Part shown: positions 6,353 to 60,372 of the stretch, piece by piece
How positions within the stretch are numbered: position 1 is the first letter of the stretch
Layout of the letters: the number at the start of each line of letters is the position of its first letter
Source: Chloroflexota bacterium
GTDB lineage: Bacteria > Chloroflexota > Dehalococcoidia > UBA2979
Reading direction: 5' to 3'
Length of the DNA: 61,446 bases
Assembly: GCA_947470025.1 (NCBI GenBank)
Contig: CANIRU010000003.1
Span: 1-61,446, forward strand
The notes under the pieces: model-generated
Told to the model about the DNA's origin: nothing
Database searches by the model: none
What the model saw: only the letters and a program-made list of their open reading frames with translations
Position numbers and translations under genes: made by a program

Positions 6353-7429
6353 ATGCTCGACCGCTTCAAGGTGCCGGAGGAAGACCGCGTCTACGTCCGC
6401 GAGTCCGAGGTGCGCGCCGCGACCGAGGCGATCTTCCTCGCGATCGGCCTCGTCGAGGCGGACGCGAAGCGCGCCGCGGACGTGCTGATCCAGAACGACC
6501 TCCGCGGCGTGGAGACGCACGGCGTCTCCAACATGCTTCGCTCGTACGTCGCGAGTTACCAATCGGGCGATCTGGAGCCGAAGCCGAAGATCGTCACAGA
6601 GCGCGAGACTTCCACGACCGCCGTCCTCGACGGTGGCAAGGGCCTCGGCCTGCACGTCGCGCCGACCGCGATGGAAATGGCGATCGAGAAGGCGCGCGTG
6701 CATGGCATGGGCGCGGTCAACGTGCACAACGTCGGGCACATGGGGGGCGCCGGCTACCACGCGATGATGGCGATCGAGCACGACATGATCGGCGTCGCGA
6801 TGTCCACGAGCGGGCGCGCGATCGTGCTGCCGACGTGGGGCGCAGAGCCTCGATTGGGCACGAACCCGATCGCGTGGGCGGTACCCGCGGGGGAGATGCC
6901 GTCGTTCGTCTTCGACATCGGCACGTCGCAGATCGCGGCGAACAAGATGCGCCTCGCCAAGCGCGTGGGTGCGAGGATCGCGCCGGGCTGGATCGCGCGC
7001 CCGGACGGCACGCCCGTGATGGAGGAGATCGACTTCCCGGACGAGTACTATCTGCTGCCGTTCGGCGGCACGCGCGAGCTGGGCTCGCACAAGGGCTACG
7101 GCCTCGGCGCGACGGTGAACATCCTGAGCAGCATCCTCACCGGCATCGGGCCGAGTCTCGCGCCCTCCAGCCCCGGGTTCCATCTGATGGCCTACCGCAT
7201 CGACGCGTTCATCGATGTCGCGAAGTTCAAGGCCGACATGGACGAGTTCCTCCGCGGCCTCGTCGCCACGCGCCCCGCGCCCGGCGAGGCGCGCGTCGTC
7301 TACGCCGGCCTGCTCGAGGAAGAAGAGCACGCGCGGCGCCTCGAGACTGGCATCCCGTACCACACCGAGGTGATCGAGTGGTTCGGCACGATCGGCAAGG
7401 AGCTCGGACTGACGTTCTCGTTCGTCTAG
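6353..7429 (+). CDS. Ldh_2-family (malate/L-lactate dehydrogenase-like) NAD(P)-dependent oxidoreductase
   Basis: DLRGVETHG, NVHNVGHMG, GTNPIAWAVP and LPFGG...HKGYGL motifs. Confidence 0.9.
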   Translation: MLDRFKVPEEDRVYVRESEVRAATEAIFLAIGLVEADAKRAADVLIQNDLRGVETHGVSNMLRSYVASYQSGDLEPKPKIVTERETSTTAVLDGGKGLGLHVAPTAMEMAIEKARVHGMGAVNVHNVGHMGGAGYHAMMAIEHDMIGVAMSTSGRAIVLPTWGAEPRLGTNPIAWAVPAGEMPSFVFDIGTSQIAANKMRLAKRVGARIAPGWIARPDGTPVMEEIDFPDEYYLLPFGGTRELGSHKGYGLGATVNILSSILTGIGPSLAPSSPGFHLMAYRIDAFIDVAKFKADMDEFLRGLVATRPAPGEARVVYAGLLEEEEHARRLETGIPYHTEVIEWFGTIGKELGLTFSFV

Positions 7430-8184: not shown

Positions 8185-8369
8185 TTCCCTGTTCCAGTTG
8201 CCCCTCGTAGGTAGGGGCGCATCGTACCACTCGCTCGTTCGTCCCAGACAAGCGACCACGGCTGCCATCCACAACCGGAACGAGTACGCTGCGCCTGCTC
8301 CGGGCAGCCTCGATGGTGGCGGGCGACCGCTCTCAGACAGCCCGGCCAATCGAAGCATCGAGCGAGGGG

Positions 8370-31873: not shown

Positions 31874-31907
31874 TCGGTGTTCATCGCAGCGTTCGAGGCG
31901 CGAAGCA

Positions 31908-32151
31908 GGGCGGCCCATCCCCCTGCCCCCTTCCCGGCGCGGAAAGGGGGATGACTGGCGAGGGCGTAGCCCTCGCCCTCCCCCGAGATCGAGGGTGCTT
32001 CGCACCTCGACGCCGGCGAAGGCTCGAATCCCTCGCGCCAACATGGCGCTGCCTGTGAAGTTCCGCCGGGAGTGTGAGGGGCGCAGCTCCTCACACTTGG
32101 TTCTCTTCTTCTGACCCCTCCCGCGCCGGGAGGGGAAGGGGTGGGCCGCCC
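31908..32151 (+). repeat. Composite inverted-REP element, copy A
   Basis: Left unit gggcggcccatccccctgcccccttccc..ggaaaggggg. The right 93 nt (32059-32151) match 56993-57085 at all but one base. Confidence 0.9.
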
Positions 32152-42846: not shown

Positions 42847-43023
42847 GTTCCCCCCTGTCCCCGCGCCGCGCTCGCCGCGCGGCGGCTGCGATGGTACCCC
42901 GGTTGGGTATCTCCGCGTTGCTGGAGAGGGTTCTGAACGGAACAGTCTTGATTCCGCGCGCACGCGCAGCGGGAGAGAGGGCGGATGAGGTTCTTGAACT
43001 CCTGGATGCGACGCAGGGTGTCG

Positions 43024-43118
43024 AACTCCGCCGGAAGTGTGAGGGGCGCAGTTCCTCGCACCTGGTTCTCTGCTTCTGAACCCCTCCCGCGCCGGGAGAA
43101 GCAGGAGTGGGCCGCCCC
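43024..43118 (+). repeat. Composite REP element, degenerate right half (copy D)
   Basis: aactccgccggaagtgtgaggggcgcagttcctcgcacctggttctc...cccctcccgcgccgggag...gtgggccgcccc aligns with the 93-nt core of copies A and B. Confidence 0.85.
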
Positions 43119-54472: not shown

Positions 54473-54639
54473 CGGTGATCTCCAAATCGGCGCGGCGTGT
54501 GCTTGTGGCGGGAGTGCGTGGGTGTCGAACCCACCCGGGACCGCGACGCGGCCCCGCAACGGTTTTGAAGACCGCGGACATCACCGGACACCATCCACTC
54601 CCGCCCGGATGATAGCGGGAGGCGGGACCCTGGGGTGCG

Positions 54640-55914
54640 CTACGGCTGGGCGACGAAGCTCATCATGCCGCCCGCGTAGGTCAGCGTGAGCGCGCTCCCG
54701 TTCTGCGTGTACTGCTGCACTTTGGCGAGCTGCGCGAGGTACGTCGTTTCCATGCTCTCGAACGGCGGGCAGGCGCGGAGCGTGCCGCCCTGCATCGTGA
54801 CGGTGAGCGCGCTGCCCGCCGTTGTGTACTTGCCGAAGTACGAATTGCAGTCCGTCGAGGTGCCGGCCGAGCCGTCCGCGTTCAACGACAGCACCGTGTC
54901 GCCGGCGGTCCTCGGCATCACGGTCGTGGCGCCCTCGACCGTCGAGGTCCAGCGCCACTTACCCACGATCGAGGTCGGCGCCGGGGACGGGGGCACGGCG
55001 ACCAGCACCAGCGCGACGTTGCGCGTCGCGGCCGCGTCGGTCAGCACGCGGACGGCGGTGTCCGTGGTGAAGCGGAGCACACCGTCGATGCGGATCTCCG
55101 CACGCACGGTGTACGTGCGGTTCGCGACGATGTCCGCGGGGCGGTAGAACAGCCGGAACGACAGCGGGATCTGCTCGCCGTTCGTGCGGATCGTCTGTGA
55201 CGCCAGCGGGCTCGCGGCGACGTCCGCCTTCGACGTGTCGAGGAGGTCGACGCGCACCATCGCGCCCACGGGCAGCGCGATCTTCTCGAGGTAGCCCACC
55301 GTGCCGATCACGGTATTGATCGAGGTCCCGGTGCAGCCCTCGTGCGTGGTGACGCCGTTCTGCTGGATCGTGGCGTCGGCGCCCTTGCTCAGGTAGAGGA
55401 TCGATCCGTCCGCGCTGACGTGACGTGTGCCGGATCCGGAGATCGTCTGCTTCAGCTCCACCGCGTGGCCCTCGAGTTCCAGGATCACGCGGTCGCCCGG
55501 CACCTGCTGCACGTGCGCGATGAACGAGCGCCCCGCGGCGCATGCGTACTGCACGATGTTCACGGCGTACGGGCTGCGGTCACCGCAGAGCACGAAGAAC
55601 GAGCTGTTCGCGCGCAGCACCGGGAAGCTCGCATTCGCGAACGCGGGCGCGCCCGCCGCGTACAGCCGCGCCGTCCCGTTGTCGTTCGCCACCAGCGACA
55701 CCGCCTCGCACCCGGCGAGGGCGAGCGAGGCATCGACCTCCGCCGCGGGGGCGTCGCGTGTCACGTTCAGTAGCGCGATCGTCGGTGTGGTGGGCACGGT
55801 GCCCGTGATCAGCGGCGCTGGCGCGCTCGGCGGCACGGTCTGCGCCCGCGCCACCCTCCCGGAGAGCGCAAACATCGTCGCCACCAGTGCCACGATCACG
55901 ATGTATGCGCGCAT
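54640..55914 (-). CDS. Secreted multidomain protein: unnamed N-domain, MliC-like, YbaY-like and META/HslJ domains
   Basis: Signal peptide (ARA-Q). YAC...LKQTISGSGTRH...LSKGADA...C (MliC-like); GTVGYLEKIALP...LLDTSKAD...YTVRAEI (YbaY-like); STDCNSYFG.Y...GTLRAC (META). Confidence 0.75.
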   Translation of the reverse strand: MRAYIVIVALVATMFALSGRVARAQTVPPSAPAPLITGTVPTTPTIALLNVTRDAPAAEVDASLALAGCEAVSLVANDNGTARLYAAGAPAFANASFPVLRANSSFFVLCGDRSPYAVNIVQYACAAGRSFIAHVQQVPGDRVILELEGHAVELKQTISGSGTRHVSADGSILYLSKGADATIQQNGVTTHEGCTGTSINTVIGTVGYLEKIALPVGAMVRVDLLDTSKADVAASPLASQTIRTNGEQIPLSFRLFYRPADIVANRTYTVRAEIRIDGVLRFTTDTAVRVLTDAAATRNVALVLVAVPPSPAPTSIVGKWRWTSTVEGATTVMPRTAGDTVLSLNADGSAGTSTDCNSYFGKYTTAGSALTVTMQGGTLRACPPFESMETTYLAQLAKVQQYTQNGSALTLTYAGGMMSFVAQP

Positions 55915-56144
55915 CTCGGTACTCCCTCGCTCAGGCTCGATTCTGCACGCGCTCTCCCGTGCCGTCTCGCCACTCACCGGCGACCTGCAGCGATTGACAC
56001 CACACTGCAACCCAGCCTTCACGGCCAAAACTGGTCCCTGCTGACCCAACGATCGAGTCACCCTCGTGGTTCCCGCGCGGTTCCGCCGGGCTTGCCTCGG
56101 CGCGGCGGGACGCACAGACTGGTCGAGGAAGCAGGAGCATCGCC

Positions 56145-56660
56145 GTGAGCATGGGTGGCCCCACCGACGAGGATCGCGCGAGCGTCTCGCCAGAGAACCT
56201 GGCGAAGATGGAGAAGTTCGTCGCCAACTTCGCGGAGAAGTCCGGCTCCTTCCTGCACCCCCAGCGCGAAATCACCGACTTCCTGGTCATCGGCCTCGCG
56301 AAGAACATCGAGGAAGTCGGCCGTCCGCTCTGCCCGTGCATGTTCTTCGAGGACAAGCAGGCAGAGGTCGAGAAGAAGTTCTGGATCTGTCCGTGCGAGG
56401 AGATGCAGCGGTGGAAGTACTGCCACTGACTGCTTTTCACCGATGCGGAAGGTCTTCCCATCACCGAATACCTGCCAGAGGACCACGAAGGCCGCGAGGC
56501 CTACGGAGATCGTCCTGACCCCGACCCCTCGAAGGGCCGTGCCCTGACGCGCCTCGAGGAGAAGCAGGGCCGCTCCGTAAACAAGGGCATCCGCGCCGAT
56601 GGCGCCGCGGGCTCCGGTAACGACGACCCTCCGCAGATCATCCCCCTCGGCGGCGGCTAG
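56145..56660 (+). CDS. ftrC: Ferredoxin-thioredoxin reductase catalytic subunit-like protein, predicted selenoprotein (Sec95 encoded by TGA 56427-56429), 171 aa
   Basis: Motifs LCPC, ICPC and YCH-TGA match the FTR CPC/CPC/CHC signature. The frame continues LLFTDAEGLPITEYLPEDHEGRE... to TAG at 56658-56660. GTG start follows AGGAG. Confidence 0.85.
56430..56462 (+). promoter_or_regulatory. Bacterial SECIS-like element
   Basis: Hairpin GAUG-(C)-GGAAG-GU-CUUCC-CAUC at 56442-56462, starting 12 nt after the UGA, with a 5' bulge and a GGUC apex. Confidence 0.75.
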
Positions 56661-56734
56661 CCCTCGGACGGTTCGAGGTGCGACGGCGCGCGGGAGCATC
56701 CTCACCGCGACGAGTCTCGTCGCGGTGGCAACGC

Positions 56735-57086
56735 GGGGCGGCCCATCCCCCTGCCCCCTTCCCTGTGCGGGAAGGGGGATGAATGGCGAGGACTCCGCCC
56801 TCGCGCTCCCACCGAAACGAGCATGCTTCGCGCCTCGGTTCCCCCGATCGCACAGCCTCACCCTGCCCTCTCCCCCTCGAAGGGGCGCGGTTTTGATGAG
56901 AGCGCCCAGCTCGCGATCGGAACTACCCCTCGGCAGCGACATCTCCATGCGGCGGTGCGAATCCCTCGCACCGACCCAACGCAGCCACATCGAGTTCCGC
57001 CGGGAGTGTGAGGGGCGCAGCTCCTCACACTTGGTTCTCTTCTTCTGACCCCTCCCGCGCCGGGAGGGGTAGGGGTGGGCCGCCCC
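56735..57086 (+). repeat. Composite inverted-REP element, copy B
   Basis: Left unit ggggcggcccatccccctgcccccttccc-tgtgc-gggaagggggatga, an internal cctcaccctgccctctcccc unit, and the 93-nt core at 56993-57085. Confidence 0.9.
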
Positions 57087-57172
57087 ACACGCCACCTCGA
57101 CAGGGCTCGCGGCGCGGACGGCGCTCCCGCTCCTGCGAGGCAATCCTCGACCTCCGGCCGCGTGGACAAGCA

Positions 57173-57200
57173 GAAGGGGCGGCCTTGCGGCCGCCCCTTC
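57173..57200 (-). terminator. trxA terminator
   Basis: gaaggggcggcc-ttgc-ggccgccccttc, 12-bp stem with GCAA loop on the minus strand. Confidence 0.75.
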
Positions 57201-57223
57201 GTGTGCTGCAGTCTCGGACGAGA

Positions 57224-57556
57224 CTAGGCGGTCGCGAGCGCCGACTCGAGGTGCTTCGCCAGGTCGCTCTTCGGGCGGAAGCCCACGACCTGACCGACCT
57301 GCTGCCCACCCTTGAAGATGAGGAGCGTCGGGATCGAGCGGATGCCGTACTTGCCGGAGACCGCCGGGTTCTCGTCCGTGTTCAGCTTCACGAACTTCAC
57401 GCGGCCGTCGTAGTCGTTCGAGAGCTCCTCGACGACCGGGGCGACCATGCGGCACGGGCCGCACCACGGCGCCCAGAAGTCCACGAGGACCGGGGTGTCG
57501 CTGTTCAGGACGTCCGCTTCAAACGTCGCGTCCGAGGTGTCCGTAGGGTGAGCCAT
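57224..57556 (-). CDS. trxA: Thioredoxin
   Basis: [19 protein letters not shown] and IRSIPTL motifs; 110 aa. Confidence 0.97.
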
Positions 57557-57704
57557 GGTGGGTGGTCCTTCCTCTCCTGCGACATCGCCCGCCGCGACGC
57601 GCTTGCTGTGTAGTCGGGTCGCCGCCGGCCCCAGCCCATCCGAGGATGGCGGTTCGTCGACGGGATGCGGGTCGTCCAGCGCCGTGGAGCGTATCATCCG
57701 CTCG

Positions 57705-57761
57705 TTGACATCGGTTCTGTCCGACGAGTAACATCCTATATACCCCTACCGGGTATGTCAA
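57705..57761. promoter_or_regulatory. Overlapping divergent sigma70-type promoters with a CsoR-type operator
   Basis: Plus strand: TTGACA(57705-10)-18-TAACAT(57729-34). Minus strand: TTGACA(57761-56)-17-TAGGAT(57738-33). Palindrome ATACCC-CTACC-GGGTAT at 57740-57756. Confidence 0.75.
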
Positions 57762-57813
57762 GCCGGTCCGCCGCCCTCTCGATGGAGTGCTTGAGCCGGA
57801 GACGAGGTGCCAC

Positions 57814-58149
57814 ATGGCAGACGCCAACGACCAGCTCATCGCCCGCCTCCGCCGCATCGAGGGCCAGGTGCGTGGCATCGCCAAGATGCTCGACGACGAG
57901 CGTTCCTGTGAGGACGTGGTGACGCAGCTGATGGCAGTGCGCTCCAGCATCGACACCGTCGGCGCGGTCGTCCTCGACAGCCACCTCGCCGGGTGCGTGT
58001 CCGAACGCAGCGCGGAGCAGCAGATCGAGGCGCTCCGGGACGCGATGCGACTCTGGTGGCGCTTCGCCCCCGCGGCGGGCGGCGTCGGCGCGGATCCTGA
58101 CACCGTTGGCGCCCAGTCCCCGCTGCCGATGCCCGGCGCGACCCGCTAG
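57814..58149 (+). CDS. csoR: CsoR/RcnR-family metal-sensitive transcriptional repressor
   Basis: RLRRIEGQVRGI..M....C.DV..QL.AV, then H-L-x-x-C: the Cys/His/Cys ligand set of CsoR. Confidence 0.85.
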   Translation: MADANDQLIARLRRIEGQVRGIAKMLDDERSCEDVVTQLMAVRSSIDTVGAVVLDSHLAGCVSERSAEQQIEALRDAMRLWWRFAPAAGGVGADPDTVGAQSPLPMPGATR

Positions 58150-60002: not shown

Positions 60003-60107
60003 GGCCGCCATGCTAGCCGACCCGCCGACGGGCGGCGAGGCGGACGAGCCGTCGGCGAGCGGATGGGGGCGTGGGTCTCATGTTTGAGAGTGGCGTCGAT
60101 CTGGCAG

Positions 60108-60308
60108 CGCGGGAGGGGTTCAGAAGGAAGAGAACCAACTGTGAGGAGCCGCGCCCCTCATGCTCTCGGCGGAATCGTGCGTTTCTAGAATGCGATATCC
60201 GAGCGTGGGCGAAGCCGCACGATCCGGACCGAGAGCCCGACGGGCACAGCCCCTCGGATCTCATCCCCCTTCCCGCGCAGGGAAGGGGGCAGGGGGATGG
60301 GCCGCCCC
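60108..60308 (-). repeat. Composite REP element, copy C (reverse orientation, one end truncated)
   Basis: The reverse complement of 60261-60308 matches the copy B left unit at all but one base; 60108-60175 is a diverged core. Confidence 0.88.
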
Positions 60309-60372
60309 ACGCTGGCACCTCGAGCGCCCTTGCCACGTCGACGCTTCGCCCGCTCCGCCTCGGCAGCGGCGC

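Follow-up and report, generated by a model that had tools for sequence, protein, structure and literature searches.

Ferredoxin:thioredoxin reductase (FTR) of the classical type, known from cyanobacteria and chloroplasts, is a heterodimer in which the catalytic subunit (FTRc, or FtrB) holds a 4Fe-4S cluster beside the redox-active pair that reduces thioredoxin, and the variable subunit (FTRv) is thought to shield that cluster. Outside photosynthesis there are single-polypeptide Fe-S disulfide reductases of the FTRc type, the ferredoxin:disulfide reductases (FDRs), such as that of M. acetivorans (PDB 4TPU) and the glutaredoxin-fused Grx-FDR of Desulfotalea (7PWE). FTRs containing selenocysteine (Sec) were predicted from GOS marine metagenome reads by Zhang and Gladyshev in 2008 (PMC2398784) and are listed as 'CxU, COG4802' in a 2022 review (PMC9312934); Sec-FTR is already known as a predicted selenoprotein family. 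Here we analyzed a 61,446-nucleotide stretch (the window) of a metagenome-assembled genome (MAG) of a Chloroflexota bacterium, in which a predicted Sec-FTR gene converges on a thioredoxin gene (trxA, with a WCGPC active site) and trxA is divergent from a gene for a CsoR-family repressor, all within about 2 kb. The original prediction, made from the sequence of this region, had pointed out this arrangement, which proved correct, and had read it as a ferredoxin-driven, selenium-dependent thioredoxin system whose thioredoxin supply responds to copper or to thiol or persulfide stress.

The window protein resembles the GOS proteins in having UGA at a redox-active Cys position of an FTRc homologue, a bacterial Sec insertion sequence (SECIS) element after it and a CxU motif. 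The GOS reports concerned read fragments without genomic context, whereas here the lineage, the gene cluster, its regulation and the loss of NADPH-thioredoxin reductase (NTR, encoded by trxB) become visible. With classical FTRc (Synechocystis 1DJ7, 2PU9) the window protein has its fold and motif spacing in common, and its expected chemistry is alike; it differs in having Sec in place of the last Cys, a C-terminal extension of about 50 residues, no FTRv in the genome and a non-photosynthetic host. The FDRs are more distant (E values of 1.6e-6 and 1.8e-3), are fused to rubredoxin or glutaredoxin, as the window protein is not, and are without Sec. The NCBIfam family NF041072 (FtrB double-selenoprotein) has two Sec residues, whereas the window protein has one, keeps Cys65 and scored 45.1 bits, under the 160-bit cut-off. 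In the literature searched, we found no study giving the organism, genomic context or biochemistry of a Sec-FTR, and no description of a selC-trxB-FTR-trxA-csoR cluster, of a CsoR-type operator in a trxA promoter or of NTR loss in this genus.

The repressor also has described counterparts. Mycobacterium tuberculosis (CsoR and RicR) and Staphylococcus aureus (CsoR and CstR) resemble the window's host in having two CsoR-family paralogues per genome, one of them beside copA. The operators are alike, with a G/C tract between TA...TA, and so is the x-C-H-C fingerprint. Unlike in those systems, the predicted target of the window paralogue is trxA, the operator lies inside a promoter spacer, and the MRLWWRFAPxAGG tail is a motif peculiar to this orthologue group. 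Our literature search found no CsoR-family repressor linked to trxA. RexT of Nostoc (PMC8960804), an ArsR-family H2O2 sensor, derepresses thioredoxin and follows the same logic, a stress-sensing repressor controlling the supply of thioredoxin; its repressor family and its organism are different, and it is not tied to any FTR selenoprotein.

The window is contig C3 of a MAG of 2.17 Mb (69% G+C, 80% complete, 152 contigs) whose closest public relatives are MAGs of uncultured freshwater Dehalococcoidia. The MAG encodes heme-copper oxidase subunit I (COX1), and the host is a non-photosynthetic aerobe. For comparison we assembled 80 related loci, which with the window made 81 loci and 862 kb in total, and we surveyed 301 Dehalococcoidia genomes for FTRc homologues. 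These were present in 76 genomes; most had an in-frame TGA, in several families, and the others had Cys.

By sequence and predicted fold, the enzyme is a single-subunit homologue of the FTR catalytic chain. The Pfam domain FeThRed_B (PF02943) matched residues 19 to 101 with 78.9 bits (cut-off 22; 3.5e-22), a match that spans the TGA. Searches of the PDB gave E values of about 1e-21 for FTR catalytic chains, compared with 1e-6 for the M. acetivorans FDR, and Synechocystis 1DJ7_A aligned with an E value of 9e-22 and about 40% identity over 84 residues. The motif reads CPCMFFEDKQAEVEKKFWICPCEEMQRWKYCHU in the window protein and CPCRHYEDKEAEVKNTFWNCPCVPMRERKECHC in 1DJ7_A. Its CPC-X16-CPC-X8-CH[C/U] spacing is identical to that of FTRc and yields C63-P-C65...C82-P-C84...C93-H-U95, that is, five Cys with Sec at the sixth position. 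U95 aligned with the last Cys of CHC (Cys87 in 1DJ7), which is reported to be the cluster-contacting partner in the structures of Dai et al., and Cys65 aligned with Cys57. The [4Fe-4S] cluster would thus be held by Cys63, Cys82, Cys84 and Cys93, with Cys65 and Sec95 as the redox-active pair; the two Cys at the matching positions form the redox-active disulfide according to the GOS paper (PMC2398784). FTR catalytic chains were also the top PDB matches of an AlphaFold2 model in Foldseek (probability 1.0). The C-terminal extension, residues ~96 to 147, is conserved. Although the positive control from Synechococcus was matched, FTRv (PF02941) had no match in the 80%-complete MAG.

Under the standard genetic code (table 11), the gene is read as an open reading frame (ORF) of 94 codons that ends at the TGA (56145..56429, plus strand), and the RNA 3' of the TGA has an unremarkable single-sequence fold. 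Both would fit a real stop codon or a pseudogene, with a truncated 94-aa FTR-like product lacking the last active-site residue. We rejected this explanation as extremely improbable. Codon 95 was TGA in all 81 loci and never TAA or TAG, and Cys-codon FTR orthologues occur in other Dehalococcoidia families. Amino acid conservation continues past the TGA, with 27 invariant positions among the 50 residues after U95, and the nucleotide entropies by codon position (0.56/0.42/1.36) show that a coding-like periodicity persists there. A hairpin that is conserved and covarying follows, and the Sec machinery is present. Judged by conservation and comparison, UGA95 is a selenocysteine codon.

The hairpin begins 12 nt past the UGA and places its loop 22 to 25 nt past it. 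Its core stem-loop (56442-56462) consists of GAUG-c-GGAA, a GGUC loop and UUCC-CAUC, with a lower stem of UUC...GAA. Over 52 distinct sequences, 96.5% of the cells were paired, against 37 to 60% in slid controls, and compensatory changes affected two of the pairs (13 cells). Entropy at third codon positions was about 0.1 within the hairpin (codons +4 to +11) and about 1.4 further downstream, with free variation on either side. The assignment of this hairpin as a SECIS element is thus a comparative one. selC, 1.5 kb upstream of the FTR gene, encodes the sole tRNA-Sec of the MAG, which also contains selD (346 bits) and selB (314 bits). With a conserved UGA recoding site, a SECIS element and Sec machinery, the enzyme is probably selenium dependent, as the original prediction had proposed.

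Comparison of the 81 loci revealed a conserved cluster of one Dehalococcoidia family, selC - trxB - FTR(Sec) - trxA - csoR - plsX, of which different loci hold different subsets. trxA is convergent downstream of FTR in 39 loci (within 700 bp in 33 of them), over many genera and with spacers mostly below 150 bp. selC lies upstream in 27 loci, 17 times within ~150 bp, and an NADPH-type trxB, with a CATC active site and an HRRD motif, is divergent and immediately upstream in 14. The CsoR paralogue is found in 28 loci and plsX in 35; in the window, plsX follows csoR on the minus strand. The FTR-trxA-csoR arrangement, kept as it is across many genera of the family, exceeds chance, and the synteny check attached to the original prediction thus came out in its favor. 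The coordinates of the features are collected in Table 1.

Table 1. Features of the Sec-FTR-trxA-csoR region, with positions counted from the first nucleotide of the window
Feature	Position	Strand	Description and basis
selC, tRNA-Sec, anticodon TCA	54506..54602	-	ARAGORN; Rfam RF01852, 71.9 bits (gathering 47)
Predicted Sec-FTR gene	56145..56661	+	GTG start, TGA 56427-56429, stop TAG 56659-61, 171 aa
Predicted SECIS hairpin	56436..56468	+	Comparative pairing, compensatory changes, frozen synonymous sites
Dispersed repeat (MITE/BoxC-like)	56700..57130		blastn of spacer against the MAG
GC-rich hairpin GAAGGGGCGGCC-ttgc-GGCCGCCCCTTC	57173..57200		Read from sequence; matches equivalent spot in several relatives
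trxA, thioredoxin, WCGPC, 110 aa	57224..57556	-	TIGR01068, 133.3 bits (cut-off 96.8); Pfam 2e-34
Predicted csoR promoter	57705..57734	+	-35 TTGACA, 18-nt spacer, -10 TAACAT
Predicted trxA promoter	57733..57761	-	-35 TTGACA (57761-57756), 17-nt spacer, -10 TAGGAT (57738-57733)
Predicted CsoR-type operator TACCCCTACCGGGTA (extended ATATACCCCTACCGGGTATGT)	57741..57755		Palindrome, TACCCC-N5-GGGTA
CsoR-family repressor paralogue, 111 aa	57814..58149	+	PF02583, 91.6 bits, 4e-26

The product of trxA is the only canonical thioredoxin that we found in the MAG. The original prediction had remarked that no NTR lies in the window and had asked whether trxB is present elsewhere. We confirmed its absence from the window and found none in the 2.17-Mb MAG either: the best match to TIGR01292 reached 50.6 bits (cut-off 343), and a tblastn search with the TrxB of a relative gave only a 28% match (E 1e-4). 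We then surveyed TrxB across the genomes of the family (f1), which include eight of the window's genus (72 to 93% complete). Seven of these eight (G000, G001, G002 and G004 to G007) had no TrxB, with no match above ~55 bits. Also without TrxB were a second genus, g4 (G010 and G030), and one more genome; in most other genera it is present, often beside FTR. Over the family, 23 genomes had both enzymes, 8 or 9 had FTR only, 4 had TrxB only and 2 had neither. Two enzymes that supply one and the same thioredoxin would be expected to show such a near-complementary distribution.

The absence of NTR could be an artefact of incomplete MAGs, in which case Sec-FTR would be an auxiliary enzyme, a second path to thioredoxin like that of the sister genera. 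In favor of an artefact, the MAG comes in 152 contigs at 80% completeness, both enzymes occur in most of the family's other genera, and short contigs of one genome of the same genus, G003, carry TrxB-like genes that scored 288 to 303 bits. We nevertheless consider an artefact improbable. From the completeness values, the chance that all seven genomes miss the same gene is about 1e-6, and genus g4 is without trxB as well. Directly upstream of FTR, at the place of trxB in relatives, the window has a lipoprotein gene. As for G003, its assembly is 4% contaminated, one of its matches lies at the very start of a contig (C270), and both are below the family cut-off. We conclude from these comparisons that the genus of the window has most probably lost its ancestral neighbor trxB. 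Given this loss, Sec-FTR is most likely the only thioredoxin reductase, and so it appears to be for this cell. In sister genera the cluster includes selC and an NADPH-type trxB as well, so the module does not generally replace NTR; it would do so only here and in a few other genera.

Taken together, these data make it likely that the locus encodes a thioredoxin system built around a Sec-containing, single-subunit FTR, with a CsoR-gated trxA and with trxB lost. As far as sequence analysis reaches, the interpretation given in the original prediction is supported. In the system that we propose, UGA95 would be recoded by SelB via the fdhF-like SECIS element, and the tRNA-Sec used would be the one whose gene lies 1.5 kb upstream. 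FTR would receive two electrons, one at a time, from reduced ferredoxin and pass them to the disulfide of TrxA, the product of the neighboring gene. The MAG encodes a 7Fe FdxA-like ferredoxin (contig C105) and a 2-oxoacid:ferredoxin oxidoreductase (POR_N, 157 bits, contig C65), so reduced ferredoxin is plausibly available.

Several points weigh against this proposal. The insertion of Sec is itself deduced from sequence: folded as a single sequence, the SECIS region did not exceed its shuffled versions in stability (z = +1.16), the SECIS families of Rfam gave no match at the FTR hairpin, and selA was seen solely as a 76-residue C-terminal fragment at the end of a small contig (C148). The AlphaFold2 model was moderate (pLDDT 64) and served to confirm the fold, not the C-terminal extension. 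Because the MAG is 80% complete, the case for a missing trxB depends on the pattern across the genus, in which G003 with its TrxB-like genes is the discordant member. Ferredoxin as the donor and TrxA as the substrate are likewise deduced, from homology and synteny. Roughly half of all Sec-FTR loci, in other families, are not beside trxA but in unrelated surroundings (one, L089, adjoins rpsN), and one locus of the window's own genus (L041) has no trxA nearby.

That half of the Sec-FTR loci are unlinked to trxA would also fit an FTR-like selenoprotein that acts as a ferredoxin:disulfide reductase on a substrate other than TrxA, the two genes being neighbors in a shared redox island. FTR-like enzymes with other partners do exist, as the FDR 4TPU of M. 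acetivorans and the Grx-fused FDR 7PWE show. The MAG contains two further candidate selenoproteins of thiol redox (Grx-like with USSC and DsbA-like with UPWC), and the conserved C-terminal extension of the enzyme is uncharacterized. We think another substrate unlikely, since FTR catalytic chains matched at 1e-21 and FDRs only at 1e-6 and 2e-3, and since a convergent trxA has been kept over many genera at short distance. In addition, trxB is the other neighbor of FTR in relatives and is nearly complementary to it in family f1, and the cell needs a thioredoxin reductase, for which we found no other candidate in the MAG. A Sec-FTR that reduces TrxA therefore remains the reading that we prefer.

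We then asked how the supply of thioredoxin might be controlled. A promoter scan of the trxA-csoR spacer found two overlapping, divergent sigma-70-type sites, compared with 0.0 expected. In the trxA promoter, the predicted CsoR-type operator fills the spacer between -35 and -10; relative to the csoR promoter, it starts at about +1. It was present in all 28 of the trxA-csoR spacers compared, and in each of them TGTCAA, the trxA -35 element read on the other strand, abuts one operator copy. Strict matches to the operator numbered 30 in the 862 kb of loci, all of them within trxA-csoR spacers, and none of the 81 loci had an operator upstream of FTR. As far as these loci show, only trxA and csoR carry the operator, and FTR does not. 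In two loci (L064 and L066) with spacers of ~350 to 400 bp, the divergent promoters are separated and each has its own operator copy, TACCCCGGTGGGGTA; this natural duplication fits a need for the operator at both promoters.

We placed the trxA start at ATG 57556, which is preceded by a conserved GGAAGGA Shine-Dalgarno sequence. A 157-aa TrxA starting from ATG 57697 was considered and rejected, since relatives have in-frame stops 1 to 20 codons upstream of the ATG at 57556. With this start, trxA would have a leader of ~170 nt (57557-57726) between its predicted promoter and its start codon; in relatives, the distance from operator to trxA start is ~90 to 300 nt.

The location of a predicted CsoR-type operator inside the trxA promoter supports the claim of the original prediction that thioredoxin supply is under CsoR-type control. 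trxA, and not FTR, would be transcribed from the sigma-70-type promoter with the operator-filled 17-nt spacer. Because one operator lies both in the trxA promoter spacer and over the divergent csoR start, a single tetramer-binding site would repress both genes. Repression would be lifted once the Cys-His-Cys site of the repressor is occupied by Cu(I) or modified by thiol-reactive species.

The trxA-linked CsoR gene is monocistronic and lies between trxA and plsX, and the MRLWWRFAPxAGG tail of its product is conserved. The product has Cys32, His57 and Cys61 (x-C-H-C), which were kept in 27 of the 28 orthologues compared. In the exception (L052), where trxA lies 3.5 kb from FTR, Cys32 has changed to Ser and His57 to Tyr together. 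Cu(I) sensors have the fingerprint x-C-H-C and persulfide sensors x-C-x-C (PMC8643695). The MAG encodes a second CsoR of 88 aa, with Tyr-Cys...His...Cys (C5:25962-26210, minus strand), directly upstream of copA, the only P1B copper ATPase of the MAG (HMA GMTCASC, CPC). The two paralogues are 30% identical, and no copper export or chaperone gene accompanies the trxA-linked one. With a canonical CsoR-CopA pair elsewhere in the MAG, the effector of the trxA-linked paralogue, as we infer it, would be either Cu(I) or a thiol or persulfide signal.

We give an appreciable though minority weight to the second of these, in which the trxA-linked CsoR would respond through its thiols, like CstR, to persulfide, oxidants or reactive species of sulfur or selenium, and the second CsoR would handle copper. 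S. aureus has just such a pair of paralogues, CsoR and CstR. In the MAG it is the canonical CsoR that sits directly upstream of the only CopA ATPase; the diverged, monocistronic paralogue lacks the Tyr before Cys32 and controls, by our prediction, a thiol-redox gene. Its best PDB match, 7MQ1, has Asn for the His ligand and was read by us as CstR-type, although it is deposited as a CsoR, and an operator-like site lies ahead of an Rrf2-cysteine synthase-ThiS operon on contig C16. Set against this, His57 is conserved and there are no cst-like genes nearby, both of which speak against CstR, nor are there other sulfide-detoxification genes; a mechanism by Cys-pair modification would still be conceivable. 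x-C-H-C is nearly universal among the orthologues, and the sole exception has lost Cys and His jointly. The PDB scores were tied among CstR, InrS and CsoR, and the best NCBIfam match was RicR, a copper sensor; as a whole, these two comparisons do not tell the candidate effectors apart. M. tuberculosis has two paralogues, CsoR and RicR, that both sense Cu(I), and the C16 site is conserved within the genus alone. On these sequence features, Cu(I) comes slightly ahead of a thiol or persulfide signal as the probable effector.

Operator-like sites in the whole MAG numbered only four, two of which lie inside ORFs, and a wider CsoR regulon was therefore rejected. One of the four is a palindrome, TACCCCCCTGGGGTA (C16:23296-23310), ~75 bp upstream of an operon of an Rrf2 regulator, a cysteine synthase (PALP) and a ThiS-like protein. 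It was kept in five genomes of the genus and was not found in other genera, and we treat it as a lead only.

More tentative still is the idea that Sec-FTR is the sole thioredoxin reductase of a whole genus of aerobic heterotrophs and that the CsoR paralogue senses a thiol-reactive signal and not copper. We doubt it as a whole. If it were true, all thioredoxin-dependent metabolism would hang on the supply of selenium and of reduced ferredoxin, and thioredoxin would be released by a dedicated CsoR paralogue that senses persulfide, an oxidant or selenium species. Sec at the cluster-contacting position would then imply an Se-Fe intermediate, which is undescribed for any FTR.

These results place Sec-FTR in a definable lineage and show it to be widespread in Dehalococcoidia. 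Within one family, the cluster joins it with its tRNA, its presumed substrate, an alternative reductase and a dedicated repressor. Some genera have NTR and Sec-FTR and others Sec-FTR only, which amounts to a natural experiment. Because the standard code reads the gene as a truncated 94-aa ORF, the predicted thioredoxin reductase of these abundant lake bacteria would be missed in metabolic reconstructions. The locus raises the questions of why an Fe-S disulfide reductase should use Sec for its cluster-contacting Cys, whether ferredoxin and selenium by themselves can sustain the thioredoxin system of an aerobe, and what signal is sensed by a CsoR paralogue whose only evident target is trxA.

The closest relative MAG (CAMDAY01, G007 above) has two Sec-FTR copies, on its contigs C11 and C72 (loci L040 and L055). 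One is 98% identical to the window protein, with the same context as in the window; the other is 88% identical, has selC directly upstream and lies at a contig end. The second copy could be a paralogue or could reflect strain mixing. A 2.1-kb contig labelled 'Verrucomicrobia bacterium' (L043, WBXI01000372.1) carries selC-FTR(Sec)-trxA-csoR with 83 to 87% protein identity to the window and is probably mis-binned.

We also scanned the genome of the window for further selenoproteins. The scan missed its positive control, since its contiguous-stem rule overlooks the bulged SECIS element of FTR. The two candidates that it returned are for that reason leads, whose backing is limited to Pfam domains spanning the TGA. 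The first (contig C11 of the window's MAG, TGA 7286-7288, plus strand) has a glutaredoxin domain with U-S-S-C, in which the Pfam Glutaredoxin match spans the TGA, followed by a C-terminal domain of ~190 aa. The second (contig C30, TGA 8189-8191, plus strand) is DsbA/FrnE-like with U-P-W-C, and its Pfam DSBA match of 93.5 bits spans the TGA. FdhA was rejected as a second selenoprotein, as the FdhA-like gene on contig C10 has Cys (VCHSP) and not Sec. FTR with the DsbA-like and perhaps the Grx-like candidate suggests a small selenoproteome centered on thiol redox.

Between selC and FTR, the window has a lipoprotein gene (54640-55917, minus strand) at a place where sister genera have trxB or nothing. 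Its product is a secreted, multi-domain protein with MliC-like, YscW/YbaY-like and META domains.

On the other side of FTR, the GC-rich hairpin downstream of trxA is likely to be a shared bidirectional terminator of the two convergent genes. The spacer between FTR and trxA is 562 bp long, compared with ~3 to 180 bp in most relatives with an adjacent trxA, because a dispersed repeat has inserted there. A regulatory RNA or hidden gene in this spacer was considered and rejected, since Rfam gave only sub-threshold noise and the spacer is a copy of the repeat. By blastn, the 2.17-Mb MAG has more than 200 partial or full copies of this element. Full copies are ~400 to 430 bp long and consist of two modules, one an inverted copy of the other, and further copies in the window lie at ~31905-32151, 43021-43118 and 60107-60356.

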